A stretch of DNA of 64,000 bases from Escherichia virus TH55: the sequence record MT446421.1; one strand, 5' to 3'. The notes beneath the pieces are model-generated. The model saw only the letters and a list, made by a program, of their open reading frames with translations. It did no database searches and was not told the origin of the DNA. This document shows positions 6,298-53,741 of the stretch, in pieces; position 1 is the first letter of the stretch, and every line of letters begins with the position of its first letter. Made by a program: the position numbers and the translations under genes.

Positions 6298-6344
6298 GAT
6301 ATTTTTCTCATCTTACGGACGATTTGGTAACTCAGTATGAAATT

Positions 6345-6372
6345 ATTATACACCGTTCATCTTTCATGTACA
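6345..6372 (-). promoter_or_regulatory. early-type promoter
   Basis: -35 TGTACA 6367-6372, 16 bp, -10 TATAAT 6345-6350; leader TACTGAGTTACCAAA. Confidence 0.5.
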
Positions 6373-6432
6373 CCACTTTTTCGCCTTTAACGCTTTTATT
6401 TTTACTGTGTATAATGGTTCTAAGGTCTTTGG

Positions 6433-7047
6433 TTAGTTCAAAACAGTCAAATGCCAAACAGTATACAGGTTATTCAATGGGTGTGTTTCAATCAAGTCTA
6501 CGCGGAGCGTAGTCCCAGCGGGAAACATAAACTCATCTTCATCATTAACCAGGTGCAAGTTTGACTTCCTGGTTGCTTCTGGATATGCACCATTGAACTC
6601 TTCAGGAGGAGCACCACAAATCATTTTGAAGATTGCTTCCTGATAGTTATACGCATATGGTGCATTGTTTATGCAGAAAATATTCCTTGTTCCATAGAAA
6701 CTGTATGATGCGAAATTTCTTGCAACCTGCCAGTCCCTGGAAAAACTCATTACACGATTGAATTCAATCGTTGCACCAACATATCTTAAATCTTCCAGGT
6801 ATTCCATAGTTTTCTTTGATATACCACGGAACAACGCCGGGGGTGGTGCAGTATTCAGATTGTTGCGGATAATCCTGGACAAGTCTTCTTGAATCAGGTC
6901 AGGTTTATTTTCCATACACTGCCAGAGTACTGATTGCTCATTATCTGTATAAAGAGCATCAATCTCCGCTTGGCATTGGTTACGAAAAGACTCACTAGAA
7001 GCGGCAGTGTCAATAATTCCATTCAAAACGTCATCAGTGTACAGCAT
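6433..7047 (-). CDS. ADP-ribosyltransferase, ModA/ModB-like
   Basis: R-S-E triad: LFRG, MSFSRD, DEDEFMF; start trimmed to ATG 7045-7047 (GAGGA SD). Confidence 0.65.
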   Translation of the reverse strand: MLYTDDVLNGIIDTAASSESFRNQCQAEIDALYTDNEQSVLWQCMENKPDLIQEDLSRIIRNNLNTAPPPALFRGISKKTMEYLEDLRYVGATIEFNRVMSFSRDWQVARNFASYSFYGTRNIFCINNAPYAYNYQEAIFKMICGAPPEEFNGAYPEATRKSNLHLVNDEDEFMFPAGTTLRVDLIETHPLNNLYTVWHLTVLN

Positions 7048-7078
7048 TTTATTATCCTCATCAGTAGTTGATAGGAAC

Positions 7079-7107
7079 ATCTTAACGTGTCTTATTGCTC
7101 TTGTACA
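7079..7107 (-). promoter_or_regulatory. early-type promoter
   Basis: -35 TGTACA 7102-7107, 17 bp, -10 TAAGAT 7079-7084; upstream of ART gene. Confidence 0.5.
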
Positions 7108-7652
7108 CAGTCAAGAACATAATAATCATCAATAAATCCAGCATCAACTACCACGAATTTCTGGTCAACTGGAACAAACCATTCAAGCTCGGAATCAATC
7201 ATGTCCATGTATTCTTCACGCCTTAATGTAGCTGCCCGTGCGGAACCAGAAGCTGTATTGAAGAATTCAAGTGGAACATCAAGTGCGATTTTGCGCATCG
7301 CATCATGGTAACAAAAAGCTTTGGTCTGATTCAATCTGACGATAGTCCTAGTCACATATTCCATTGCAGCAAAATCCCTGGCAATACCATAGTCTTCTGT
7401 AAAGGAGGTTATCCGTCCAAATTCAAAAGGTTGCATTGATTCTTTTGCTTCATCTAACAAATCAATCTCTTGCTGGGTTACCCCGCGCCACAAGACTGTA
7501 TCGGGTATAGACAACCTTGACTTGATGATTGAGTTGACATTTGAATGCAAGGTCTTATCAACCTTTGATGTACGGCATTCAAATAATGAAGCTATCTCCA
7601 TTTCACTAAATTTTAACTGGTTGGGTTCGGTATCAGATTTGATGATGTTCAT
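7092..7652 (-). CDS. ADP-ribosyltransferase, ModA/ModB-like
   Basis: R-S-E triad: LWRG, ITSFTED, DSELEWF; tandem with 6433..7047. Confidence 0.65.
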   Translation of the reverse strand: MNIIKSDTEPNQLKFSEMEIASLFECRTSKVDKTLHSNVNSIIKSRLSIPDTVLWRGVTQQEIDLLDEAKESMQPFEFGRITSFTEDYGIARDFAAMEYVTRTIVRLNQTKAFCYHDAMRKIALDVPLEFFNTASGSARAATLRREEYMDMIDSELEWFVPVDQKFVVVDAGFIDDYYVLDCVQEQ

Positions 7653-7708
7653 AATGGTCTCTCTGTTGTAAGAAAGACCATTATGTCATTAGGAGGGGAG
7701 TAAGTAAA

Positions 7709-7978
7709 CTACTTAAACACTCCAAGTGGAACGCCAAAGACTGCAATGTCTACGGCCATACCAATCGGAGATTGGTATGATGGAGATTGATATGATGAGT
7801 AAGAACTTTTCGATTTTATCGGGGTTTCGACTTTAATTGTCTCGGATTCAGTCTTAAGCCTTTGTAAACGATTAATTTTTTGTTGCTCGATTTCCTTATG
7901 AGCATGTTTACGGTCGATATCCAGCGCCGATGTGGGAATATTTGTTAACCAGTTCATTGTTTCACCCATGGTGCCCAT
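7709..7978 (-). CDS. hypothetical protein
   Basis: 89-aa ORF. Confidence 0.45.
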   Translation of the reverse strand: MGTMGETMNWLTNIPTSALDIDRKHAHKEIEQQKINRLQRLKTESETIKVETPIKSKSSYSSYQSPSYQSPIGMAVDIAVFGVPLGVFK

Positions 7979-8133
7979 GGAGGTGGGTCATCGTAATATG
8001 AGGCCAGGTCGCGTAGAACTTCCATTGGGAGGCTAAAACCGTGCTTCTGTATAATCGCATCAAGTTCGTCAACTAGGTCCACACGGGCTTCCGTAGGAGC
8101 TTTAGGCTCTTCAAAAAGTTCAAATAAATCCAT
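7954..8133 (-). CDS. small acidic protein (59 aa)
   Basis: Not in ORF track; ATG overlaps upstream stop (TAATG). Confidence 0.3.
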   Translation of the reverse strand: MDLFELFEEPKAPTEARVDLVDELDAIIQKHGFSLPMEVLRDLASYYDDPPPWAPWVKQ

Positions 8134-8615
8134 TAGTAACCACCGATAGGGCCGTAACCATACATACGAGCTCGGACTTTAGTATCGTGCAGAGCTTCTT
8201 CTGTTAAAGTAAAGCGCAGACCAATATCAAAGTGTTTCCAAATCTGACGTTCGACTTCAGCAAGGTCGTCGGTAGTGGAAATCAGATATGTGCGACCTTG
8301 AAGACGTTCAGTGGCCATTTTATCTCTATCTTTATAGAAAATGGTATCTTCGCCATAAAGGTCTGGGTGACGATAGCCTTTGATGTGCAGAGCTTCAGAA
8401 ACAGTAAACGGACACCCTTCGGCAACATCAACGTTTTTTCTATGAAATACCTTCAGCATAACGTTTTCTGGCATCGTCAAGTTCATTAATTTTGTTTCCA
8501 ATGCAGTGACCGAATCCATGCCATTGTAAACCATGATAAGGCATGCGGTAGCATCGTAAGGTCGTGTTTGACCTGCCGAATCACGGACATAGAATTCTAA
8601 TTCATATACTTTCAT
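8133..8615 (-). CDS. hypothetical protein (T4 mrh position)
   Basis: 160-aa ORF; AAGAGGA SD. Confidence 0.5.
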
Positions 8616-8761
8616 AATGTTTTCCTCTTACCGACTAATGGACCATCAGGAACTTTATTTTCCTTGATGTACTTTTCGTTTTCTTCCATCATTTTACTGC
8701 CAATTTTCAAAAGCAAATCCAGTGCTTCTTTTGCTCGGCGTTCAGCATCTTCTTGTGTCAT
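8612..8761 (-). CDS. small protein (49 aa)
   Basis: Not in ORF track; ATGA stop/start overlaps at both ends. Confidence 0.3.
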
Positions 8762-42320: not shown

Positions 42321-42563
42321 TTAGATTACACTCCAAAAATTATGGAAGCGGATATCATCGATAGCCCAGTTAACAAACATGCGAGTTTGTTTGGGTGTTG
42401 GTTTACATGAGTACTTGTTATTGACCCGACGACCAGTTTCTCGACAGACTGCTTCGAGATACCATCGGCGGCCTTTATGAGGTCTTCCGTATGATAAGAA
42501 GACCTTGATTTCTTTGTTAACGATAATAGGAATTGTGGTTGTCAAGGTATACCTCTTCAACAA
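42321..42563 (-). CDS. hypothetical basic protein
   Basis: 80-aa ORF followed by strong terminator; 5' end overlaps upstream gene. Confidence 0.45.
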   Translation of the reverse strand: MLKRYTLTTTIPIIVNKEIKVFLSYGRPHKGRRWYLEAVCRETGRRVNNKYSCKPTPKQTRMFVNWAIDDIRFHNFWSVI

Positions 42564-43527
42564 ACTTGTCCCAGAACTTCATGTCCACCTTCACAGGCAT
42601 ACCATTCTTAGCAGCCTGGATGGCCAGAACTTCAACTAAATCGACAGTATCTTCAAGAAGTTCTTGAACTTCTTTAAATGGTAATTCACCAGCTTTAATC
42701 AGCTTAATGATAGAGGCTTCACGCAATGGGAATACCAAGTCACCTGTTTGGTAGATTTCCATCAATTGATACCCTGCACGATATGCATGGCTCAGTGCTT
42801 TCCAGTCAATACCTTCATTAGCTTCAGCCTTACGAGCACGTTCACCATATTCGGCGTCGAGTTTATTCAGAGATTGCTTGAGCTCGATTAATGATAGAGT
42901 AGTTTGGTATTTACGACCGAGGACAGTATAGAACGTTTGAGGACCTGTTTTCTCATGGTTATGAAATACCCATTCGCAGAACTCGTTTTCAGGGAGCCTG
43001 TGTTTGATATCTTCTACCTTAGTACGTCGTTGCTTAGTGGAACCATCTTCTTGATAATCAACCCATTGTTCAGGAATCTGGTTAACAATTTCCAATACAC
43101 CACGCAGTGCAGCCAATCGAGAACCTTTAACACCATATTTGGAAGCTTGCTTACGGACGTACCCCAAATAGGCTTTCATGTTAGTTGTATAGAACCGCGA
43201 ACGGTTGTCTTGAATAAACTTCCATACATCTGGTAAATCGGATTTGACTACCAGGTCAGCCGGTGTGTGAATCATATCCAGAGCAACGGTTTCGCCTTCG
43301 GCTGCCAGTTTAAAGAAATATTTCAGGCTATAAAGTTCATGGTCAACATCATCTTTTGTATTTTTGGTAGCCGTGTTATTCGTGTTCAGGTTGGTATGGT
43401 TCATCGCGGTTCCGAGCAGGATATCTCGCGGATGAGGAACAAAGATTTCTTTAAAATCAACATCAGATTCCGGAGTGCTTGTTCCATAAAGATGGCTACC
43501 GAAGTAGCCTTTCATAACTGTTCTCAT
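42517..43527 (-). CDS. predicted nucleotidyltransferase (pol-beta superfamily fold)
   Basis: 336 aa; N-terminal GSHLYGTSTPESDVD fits hG[GS]x9-13Dh[DE] motif. Confidence 0.5.
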   Translation of the reverse strand: MRTVMKGYFGSHLYGTSTPESDVDFKEIFVPHPRDILLGTAMNHTNLNTNNTATKNTKDDVDHELYSLKYFFKLAAEGETVALDMIHTPADLVVKSDLPDVWKFIQDNRSRFYTTNMKAYLGYVRKQASKYGVKGSRLAALRGVLEIVNQIPEQWVDYQEDGSTKQRRTKVEDIKHRLPENEFCEWVFHNHEKTGPQTFYTVLGRKYQTTLSLIELKQSLNKLDAEYGERARKAEANEGIDWKALSHAYRAGYQLMEIYQTGDLVFPLREASIIKLIKAGELPFKEVQELLEDTVDLVEVLAIQAAKNGMPVKVDMKFWDKFVEEVYLDNHNSYYR

Positions 43528-47843: not shown

Positions 47844-48016
47844 AATTCAATTCCATCCATAACCAAAATTCTTTTTCGTTGGGTCTTGAGAGCTTCGTTA
47901 GCCCGGTCATAATCTTCTTGACTACCGCTAGGCTGTAAAGCCGCTACCTTTTTGGCCAAGTGAATAAGCTTATCCAAGTTTTCAACAATACGTTCTTGTT
48001 CTTCATTCAGGCTCAT
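47840..48016 (-). CDS. small protein (58 aa)
   Basis: Not in ORF track; ATGA overlap with downstream start. Confidence 0.3.
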   Translation of the reverse strand: MSLNEEQERIVENLDKLIHLAKKVAALQPSGSQEDYDRANEALKTQRKRILVMDGIEL

Positions 48017-48467
48017 AATCCACCACTATTAAATCAATATCAGGAGTAAACATGTCGATTAATTTAGAAACCTTTTCCCAATCTCCACCTGCAATACCAC
48101 AACCAATGCGAGGAATGTAAATTACCGGTTTAAACAAAAGGGTTTCTGCTTGTAGATTTAATTCTATCATACAATTTACTAAAGCACCATAATCAAGATT
48201 AGGGCCCGGTTCATATTGAGTGTACAAATTATAACACATACCAAACCCAGTAGGTTTATGTTTAAAAACAATAGACATATCGCCTAATTTATCACGAGAA
48301 CCATATTCAGTGGTGGTTTTATCTATTTCTAAAACTTTTGGATAGGCCTTCGCCAACTGTCCAGCTACACCAGAACCCATTGTGTGGAAGCAGTTACAAC
48401 CATGAGCAATAATATTGCCTTGAAGAAAGAGGGCGACGATATCGCCCTTAATATACTGGGTAATCAT
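48003..48467 (-). CDS. macro-domain-like protein (possible ADP-ribose binding/processing)
   Basis: 154 aa; IAHGCNC...MGSGVAG and IGCGIAGG glycine-rich segments resemble macro-domain motifs; tentative. Confidence 0.5.
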   Translation of the reverse strand: MITQYIKGDIVALFLQGNIIAHGCNCFHTMGSGVAGQLAKAYPKVLEIDKTTTEYGSRDKLGDMSIVFKHKPTGFGMCYNLYTQYEPGPNLDYGALVNCMIELNLQAETLLFKPVIYIPRIGCGIAGGDWEKVSKLIDMFTPDIDLIVVDYEPE

Positions 48468-53282: not shown

Positions 53283-53741
53283 TTATCCGAAAATTTGAGT
53301 CATTACCTTGTACATCGATTTGCCCATCACATACTGCCATTGACTCGGTTTAATCAGAGCAAATGCATCGAACTCTGGAACCGAACTACCATCCGGGAAG
53401 GTATGATAGGCAGAGCATTTACTATGTCTAAACTGCTCATGCTCAACCGGAACCGTGTACAAAAACAGGTGAAGATTTTTGTTATCTGAATAACGGAACT
53501 CACCCAGGTCCTTTAAGAATGCCGGGTCGTATTGGGTAAACCCGGTTTCTTCTTCGGTTTCACGGATAGCCGCTTCAATCGGGGATTCACCAGCTTCAAC
53601 ATGGCCCTTAGGGATGTCCCATTTATGTGCAGGCATACCTGGTTTACGAGAACAAGTCACACGACCCATGAATAACTCTTTATCTTCAGTCATGAAAATA
53701 ATGCCAGCAGATAATTCTTTCACCTTGTTTTTCTTACTCAT
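53283..53741 (-). CDS. nudE: Nudix hydrolase NudE
   Basis: Trimmed to internal ATG; Nudix box GHVEAGESPIEAAIRETEEETG. Confidence 0.8.
   Translation of the reverse strand: MSKKNKVKELSAGIIFMTEDKELFMGRVTCSRKPGMPAHKWDIPKGHVEAGESPIEAAIRETEEETGFTQYDPAFLKDLGEFRYSDNKNLHLFLYTVPVEHEQFRHSKCSAYHTFPDGSSVPEFDAFALIKPSQWQYVMGKSMYKVMTQIFG

Follow-up and report, generated by a model that had tools for sequence, protein, structure and literature searches.

Two adjacent Mod-family ADP-ribosyltransferase homologs in Escherichia virus TH55

Bacteriophage T4's ModA and ModB are textbook enzymes of host takeover, and ModB is also the founding RNAylation enzyme. Two adjacent genes on the minus strand of Escherichia virus TH55 (MT446421.1), located between positions 6,433 and 7,652 of the 64,000-nucleotide (nt) stretch that was analysed and is referred to below as the window, raise the question of whether they encode a pair of the same kind and, if so, which copy corresponds to which T4 enzyme. 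An earlier note, made from the sequence alone, had read them as tandem ModA/ModB-type ADP-ribosyltransferases (ARTs) of the R-S-E type from their Arg, Ser-x-Ser and Glu-x-Glu signatures. Homology to the T4 enzymes, synteny, the ART fold of the predicted models, conservation of every catalytic residue and a profile match to the ART Vis all agree with this reading. Both genes very probably encode small (~20 kDa), arginine-specific mono-ARTs that depend on nicotinamide adenine dinucleotide (NAD+), belong to the phage Mod family within the R-S-ExE clade, and represent the counterparts of T4 ModA and ModB in a Gaprivervirus. Both have already been annotated, as homologs of T4 enzymes that were characterised by experiment, and such homologs are expected in a T4-like phage.

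Homology, catalytic residues and predicted fold

The two genes are named here by their order in the direction of transcription.

6433..7047, minus strand: downstream mod gene, 204 amino acids (aa) from the ATG at 7047, in the position of T4 modA
7092..7652, minus strand: upstream mod gene, 186 aa, in the position of T4 modB; GenBank QUL77738.1, 'ModB ADP-ribosylase'

As the earlier note had proposed, two adjacent paralogous open reading frames (ORFs) are present here. Their products are 28% identical over 151 aa (BLASTP, E 4e-18) and have the three motifs at matching alignment positions, a similarity far beyond chance that identifies them, at the level of sequence, as real paralogs. The longest ORF of the downstream gene spans 6433..7080 on the minus strand and encodes 215 aa. 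Its start is most likely the second ATG at 7047, since this codon is preceded by a GAGGA Shine-Dalgarno sequence (7055-7059) with a 7-nt spacer, the nearest homologs are 204 aa long with the N terminus MLY, and GenBank starts the protein at the same place (QUL77739.1, 'NAD--protein ADP-ribosyltransferase modA', the 204-aa form). The 11-residue N-terminal extension of the longer form is probably not translated. With the start at 7047 the two genes are separated by 44 nt; with the start at 7080 the gap is 11 nt.

Both proteins match phrog_832, 'RNA polymerase ADP-ribosylase', with E values of 2.3e-38 (downstream) and 6.6e-28 (upstream). By BLASTP, the downstream protein is 34% identical to T4 ModA (E 1e-19, 69.7 bits) and 37% identical to T4 ModB (E 2e-28, 93.6 bits), and the upstream protein is 29% identical to T4 ModA (E 7e-14, 53.5 bits) and 31% identical to T4 ModB (E 2e-23, 79.3 bits). 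All four alignments span nearly the full length of the proteins. Homologs were detected by tblastn in 1021 phage records for the downstream protein and in 931 for the upstream protein, and when 1.84 billion cluster representatives were searched exhaustively with a profile, 108 family members came up at E <= 1e-3 (41 at E <= 1e-10). A single-sequence phmmer search against PDB sequences gave no meaningful match; a profile of 45 sequences reached Vis (4xzj, E 1.4e-3) and also XopAI. On Vis, an arginine-specific ART, the family signatures LYRG, TSFS and dEkE fall on YRG, TSTS and EAE, respectively.

The domain libraries count against the assignment. Scans with Pfam-A (a copy without PF26816.1) and NCBIfam returned nothing above threshold, only a sub-threshold match to DRAT, and the family PF26816.1 was seen only on homologs, where it is precomputed for all of the close ones (P0001-P0017).

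The six motif strings quoted by the earlier note are all present at the expected places. They are LFRG (83-86), MSFSRD (111-116) and DEDEF (180-184) in the 215-aa numbering of the downstream protein, and LWRG (54-57), ITSFTED (81-87) and DSELEW (153-158) in the 186-aa upstream protein. The Ser-x-Ser signature that had been ascribed to both is found as S-F-S in the downstream protein; in the upstream protein it reads S-F-T. The codons concerned are as follows.

6826..6828, minus strand: predicted NAD-binding Arg codon of the downstream gene, R74 (204-aa numbering) or R85 (215-aa numbering), the arginine of LFRG in strand beta-1
6739..6747, minus strand: S-F-S motif of the downstream gene, S101-F-S103, where a strand ends and a helix follows
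6532..6540, minus strand: Glu-x-Glu of the downstream gene, E170-D-E172 (204-aa numbering) or E181/E183 (215-aa numbering)
7485..7487, minus strand: predicted NAD-binding Arg codon of the upstream gene, R56 in LWRG
7398..7406, minus strand: S-F-T motif of the upstream gene, S83-F-T85, aligned with the S-F-S of its paralog
7182..7190, minus strand: Glu-x-Glu of the upstream gene, E155-L-E157

In both proteins the catalytic triad aligns with ART active-site positions. Downstream R74 (R85) and upstream R56 correspond to R72 of T4 ModA and R73 of T4 ModB, and the glycine that follows (G75 and G57) aligns with G73 of ModA and G74 of ModB. The first glutamate of the Glu-x-Glu motif, E170 (E181) downstream and E155 upstream, aligns with ModA E163 and ModB E171, and the second, E172 (E183) downstream and E157 upstream, with ModA E165 and ModB E173. 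These positions matter in the T4 enzymes. The R73A/G74A variant of ModB loses both ADP-ribosylation and RNAylation (PMC10468400), E173 of ModB is essential while R73 binds NAD (bioRxiv 10.1101/2025.07.11.664405, citing Tiemann 2004), and the E165A variant of ModA loses ADP-ribosylation (PMC11404850).

Conservation was assessed by aligning 45 of the family members, representatives that share no more than 50% identity, with the T4 and window proteins. The sole invariant columns are R74, G75, E170 and E172 (downstream 204-aa numbering), and S101, the first serine of S-x-S/T, is kept in at least 90% of the 45 members. The motif is thus a conserved family core rather than a chance pattern. A reading in which the motifs arose by chance in small phage proteins that are unrelated to ARTs could point to the brevity of R, SxS and ExE and to DRAT as the only, sub-threshold, Pfam result. 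It was rejected on the full-length homology to T4 ModA and ModB (down to E 2e-28), the PHROG match (2e-38), folds that match R-S-E ARTs only and the invariant motif columns, and its probability is close to nil.

Confident AlphaFold2 models predict an ART fold in both proteins, with a predicted local distance difference test (pLDDT) score of 91.7 and a predicted template modelling (pTM) score of 0.85 for the downstream protein (204 aa), and a pLDDT of 86.8 and pTM of 0.81 for the upstream protein (186 aa). The downstream model places the arginine in a strand (71-75) and the S-x-S motif in a second strand (100-103) that is followed by a helix (106-113). The upstream model has the arginine in strand 54-57, the S-x-T motif in strand 82-85 followed by helix 88-98, and a helix (138-155) leading into a strand (157-160) around the E-x-E motif. 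Both models present the canonical R-S-E topology in which E-x-E lies at the junction between a long helix and a strand. When the models were searched against the PDB with Foldseek, the top matches were exclusively ARTs of the R-S-E clade (E 1e-6 to 1e-7), including Certhrax, HopU1, XopAI, a toxin/immunity pair (6drh, 6dre), C3 exoenzymes, iota toxin Ia, CDTa, VIP2 and Plx2A. A comparison of the upstream model with the predicted viral structures of BFVD identified Mod proteins of T4-like phages with template modelling (TM) scores of 0.74-0.90.

These data also bear on whether one of the paralogs might be a catalytically dead pseudoenzyme that is kept for binding only. Nothing specific favors this alternative beyond the general observation that tandem duplicates sometimes degenerate and the strong divergence of the upstream copy. 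Against it, R-G, S-x-S/T and E-x-E occupy aligned positions in both copies, both have confidently predicted ART folds, and the mod ORFs are unbroken and carry gene annotations in the related phages VR7, VR20, VR25, VR26 and SP18. A dead copy is therefore very unlikely.

Among known systems, the bacterial toxins and effectors of the R-S-E clade (Vis, Certhrax, HopU1, XopAI, C3, Ia/CDTa and VIP2) have the ART fold in common with the window proteins at a TM score of about 0.5 and 8-16% identity. The Mod proteins differ from these toxins in being phage-encoded cytoplasmic proteins of a single domain that lack components for secretion or binding, and in their distinct N-terminal helical bundle. T4 Alt, a virion-packaged ART of 682 aa, is placed in the same clade as Mod (PMC9503650). 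The alignment with ModA, ModB and Alt that the earlier note had suggested as a check is significant for the first two; for Alt, a profile comparison (hhalign) gave an insignificant E value of 0.12 over 22 columns restricted to the E-x-E strand, where NDEDEFMFPAG aligns with SNEMEVILPRG. Alt is large, packaged in the head and encoded outside the window's mod region, whereas the Mod proteins are small products of the early region. Membership of the Alt/VIP2 family was rejected on the insignificant hhalign result and because the window proteins are single-domain early-region products of about 20 kDa.

Gene order and the ModA and ModB labels

Between 5200 and 8700 the sequence matches Escherichia phage UPEC07 (MW250787.1; Straboviridae, Tevenvirinae, Gaprivervirus) at 100.0% identity and VR7, VR20, VR25, VR26 and SP18 at 90-95%. 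The UPEC07 record is the source of the two GenBank annotations given above. Judged from the offset between the two sequences, bases 1-534 of the window lie past the end of this linear 'partial genome' record, so that the window either does not derive from the record as deposited or wraps around its ends. In the direction of transcription the region encodes a Mrh/ModA.3-like protein, small ORFs, the upstream mod, the downstream mod, srd, dda.1 and dda. The neighbors were identified by matches to Pfam T4_MRH (2e-43), phrog_1400 for srd (1e-98), Phage_Y01A for dda.1 (1e-26) and SH3_14 for dda (2e-33). T4 has the identical order of modA.3, modA.2, modB, modA, srd, dda.1 and dda, and the position of the mod slot between modA.2/mrh-like genes and srd-dda.1-dda was confirmed with Pfam and PHROG and by comparison to T4, JS98 and LH01.

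With respect to position, the upstream gene occupies the slot of T4 modB (NP_049636, 207 aa), after a modA.2-like gene and before a second mod, and the downstream gene lies directly 5' of srd, as does T4 modA (NP_049635, 200 aa). ModB shares its family, fold and R-G, S-x-T and E-x-E positions with both window proteins and is the best-scoring T4 relative of each, at 31-37% identity; the upstream protein falls short of its length by 21 aa, most of them N-terminal. ModA likewise belongs to the same family with the same catalytic positions. At 34% identity to ModA the downstream protein is closer to ModB, and T4 ModA forms a long branch. The T4 genes differ in spacing as well, since the modB stop overlaps the modA start in T4 and the window genes are 44 nt apart.

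The names ModA and ModB rest on position only, and the assignment of targets is the weakest step of the reading. Two results weigh against a sequence-based assignment. The first is that T4 ModB, not T4 ModA, gives the higher score with each of the window proteins, so that the labels cannot be assigned from similarity. The second is the neighbor-joining tree of 12 Mod proteins (300 bootstraps), in which T4 ModA, T4 ModB and the upstream protein of UPEC07 form long branches that the tree does not place and the deep nodes have 18-60% support. The same tree recovers a 'downstream' clade of UPEC07, JS98 and LH01 and an 'upstream' clade of JS98 and LH01, each with 100% support. T4 ModA finds its best matches outside Tequatrovirus among the downstream proteins (JS98, 86 bits; LH01, 76 bits; UPEC07, 69 bits) and, by BLASTP, did not match the JS98 and LH01 proteins of the upstream slot. 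This pattern agrees, weakly, with orthology by position. Thus, outside the T4 genus, 'modA' and 'modB' denote a gene position rather than a demonstrable orthology.

The mod pairs of Gaprivervirus and Dhakavirus phages (VR7, VR20, SP18 and JS98) share the gene order of the window and are annotated as modA and modB. Within Gaprivervirus they show no difference of substance from the window pair, with the downstream protein 97% identical in VR20 and the upstream protein 94% identical in VR7. Tequatrovirus (T4), Dhakavirus (JS98), Mosigvirus (LH01) and Gaprivervirus each have two mod genes in tandem, and a single mod fills the same slot in Gelderlandvirus (STP4-a), Karamvirus (fGh-Ecl04), Marfavirus (Klebsiella phage EI) and Jiaodavirus (15882-6). 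The tandem arrangement is a property of the four E. coli genera examined, and the single mod between a modA.2-like gene and srd of Tevenvirinae genera from other hosts. The genome of Klebsiella phage EI has dmd inserted between mod and srd. Three separate matches to the 186-aa Mod were found in each of MK327928.1 (G2133) and NC_027349.1 (HY01), the best of them near 52 kb and far from dda-srd, which suggests that some T4-like phages carry a third Mod paralog elsewhere in their genomes.

Proposed activity and divergence of the upstream paralog

By analogy with T4, both mod genes are probably transcribed early, because they are syntenic with T4 early genes and the flanking genes share their orientation. 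Host RNA polymerase would probably start at a promoter just 5' of the first mod gene, where one candidate is located.

7680..7708, minus strand: sigma-70-type promoter-like site (TTTACT, 17 nt, CATAAT, with TG), 5' of the upstream mod gene

This site might serve as an early promoter from which mod-mod-srd-dda.1-dda are transcribed. A consensus scan argues for caution, as the region contains 6 promoter-like sites compared to 9.1 +/- 3.6 in shuffled sequences; scanned for promoters and terminators, the region showed no enrichment over shuffles.

Once made, the enzymes would bind NAD+ through the arginine of strand beta-1 and the S-x-S/T strand. The first glutamate of E-x-E would confer specificity for arginine and the second would catalyse transfer of ADP-ribose onto arginine side chains of host proteins. 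An NAD+-dependent arginine ADP-ribosylation of host proteins is predicted for both enzymes on the basis of the conserved catalytic residues and the T4 data. If position is taken as a guide, the downstream 204-aa enzyme would be the equivalent of ModA and the upstream 186-aa enzyme the equivalent of ModB. T4 ModB targets the ribosomal protein S1 as well as EF-Tu and trigger factor, and the modification of Arg265 by T4 ModA leads to less use of UP-element and CRP-dependent promoters. That residue is modified on both alpha subunits of RNA polymerase, and ModB acts on translation factors (review PMC2988021).

As in T4 ModB, the upstream enzyme might also transfer NAD-capped RNA to proteins, a reaction termed RNAylation. 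We know of no sequence determinant that has been defined for it. RNAylation is known for T4 ModB only, which attaches NAD-capped RNAs to the ribosomal proteins S1 and L2; the corresponding activity of ModA and Alt is weak (PMC10468400).

The upstream protein is the point at which the comparison to T4 becomes difficult, and its divergence weighs against a simple ModB equivalence. It is 31% identical to the proteins in the same slot of JS98 and LH01, compared to 51-79% identity to JS98 for the flanking genes and 65% for the downstream Mod. Its matches in 931 phage records fall into 33 with at least 90% identity and 898 below 60%; the latter are at most 33% identical among the matches listed. A metagenomic relative (P0016) is 63% identical. 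From these identities, the upstream Mod is a divergent lineage confined to Gaprivervirus, and the pattern points to a local replacement or a very fast evolution of this one gene. Since it is 31% identical where its flanks are 51-79%, its targets may differ from those of T4 ModB.

The divergence bears on an alternative in which both proteins are active ARTs and the upstream enzyme has acquired new host targets or a substrate preference different from T4 ModB, such as a host defence protein as its target or a lack of RNAylation, so that the labels ModA and ModB would mislead. It is favored by the restriction of the lineage, at 90% identity or more, to about 33 Gaprivervirus records, by the contrast between the upstream protein and its neighbors in the JS98 and LH01 comparison, by a tree that places the upstream Mod with no ModB, and by a shorter N-terminal helical region. 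Set against this, the catalytic core and the arginine-type ExE are fully kept, the position in the operon is conserved, direct evidence for another target is absent, and low identity is normal for the Mod family, in which even T4 ModA and ModB share no more than about 25-30% identity with each other (PMC10468400). On balance this alternative is the less likely one, yet it deserves to be taken seriously. Slightly more doubtful is the specific proposal that the 186-aa enzyme is a Gaprivervirus-specific paralog, fast-diverged or replaced, whose targets or transfer of NAD-capped RNA differ from those of T4 ModB. If this were true, the tandem mod genes of T-even phages would mark a hot spot at which ART specificity is re-invented repeatedly and not the site of a fixed ModA/ModB pair. 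Under the preferred assignment to the Mod family, the targets and RNAylation properties of T4 ModB should still not be transferred to the upstream protein without a test, because the names are positional and the upstream copy is the outlier in divergence.

Other NAD-related genes and neighboring annotations

The earlier note had grouped the mod genes with a NudE, a macro-like protein and a nucleotidyltransferase as NAD/ADP-ribose-related enzymes of the window. The first two identifications were borne out; the third protein is of the RlaP type, with no shown link to NAD.

53283-53741, minus strand: NudE-type Nudix hydrolase (Pfam NUDIX, 2e-16)
48003-48467, minus strand: macro-domain protein (Pfam Macro, 6e-8)
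42517-43527, minus strand: nucleotidyltransferase of 336 aa, RlaP-type (2e-12), from an RNA-repair family

T4 NudE (e.1) hydrolyses ADP-ribose, flavin adenine dinucleotide and diadenosine triphosphate (Ap3A) (PMC9503650). The three genes are dispersed at distances of 35-46 kb from the mod genes, and therefore do not form a local functional cluster with them. A functional NAD/ADP-ribose gene cluster of mod, NudE, macro and nucleotidyltransferase genes was rejected on these distances and on the RlaP type of the nucleotidyltransferase. The macro-domain protein raises the question of whether it might reverse ADP-ribosylation by Mod or Alt.

Several gene names in the UPEC07 record deserve comment. 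The genes at 7954..8133, 8133..8615 and 8612..8761 (minus strand) are called 'molybdenum ABC transporter' or 'periplasmic molybdenum-binding protein'. Among them is a 160-aa protein of the T4 MRH/ModA.3 family (the Pfam T4_MRH match given above), and the names look like a mix-up of T4 modA.2/.3/.4 with bacterial ModA. Other artefacts of name propagation in this record include eight instances of 'thioredoxin' and the use of 'major capsid protein' for ORFs of about 75 aa. A 41-aa coding sequence annotated as 'hypothetical protein' (6332-6457, minus strand) spans the mod-srd intergenic region, shares sequence with the 3' end of the downstream mod, and was probably called as a gene in error. The same intergenic region contains a promoter-like site at 6372-6345 (TGTACA, 16 nt, TATAAT).

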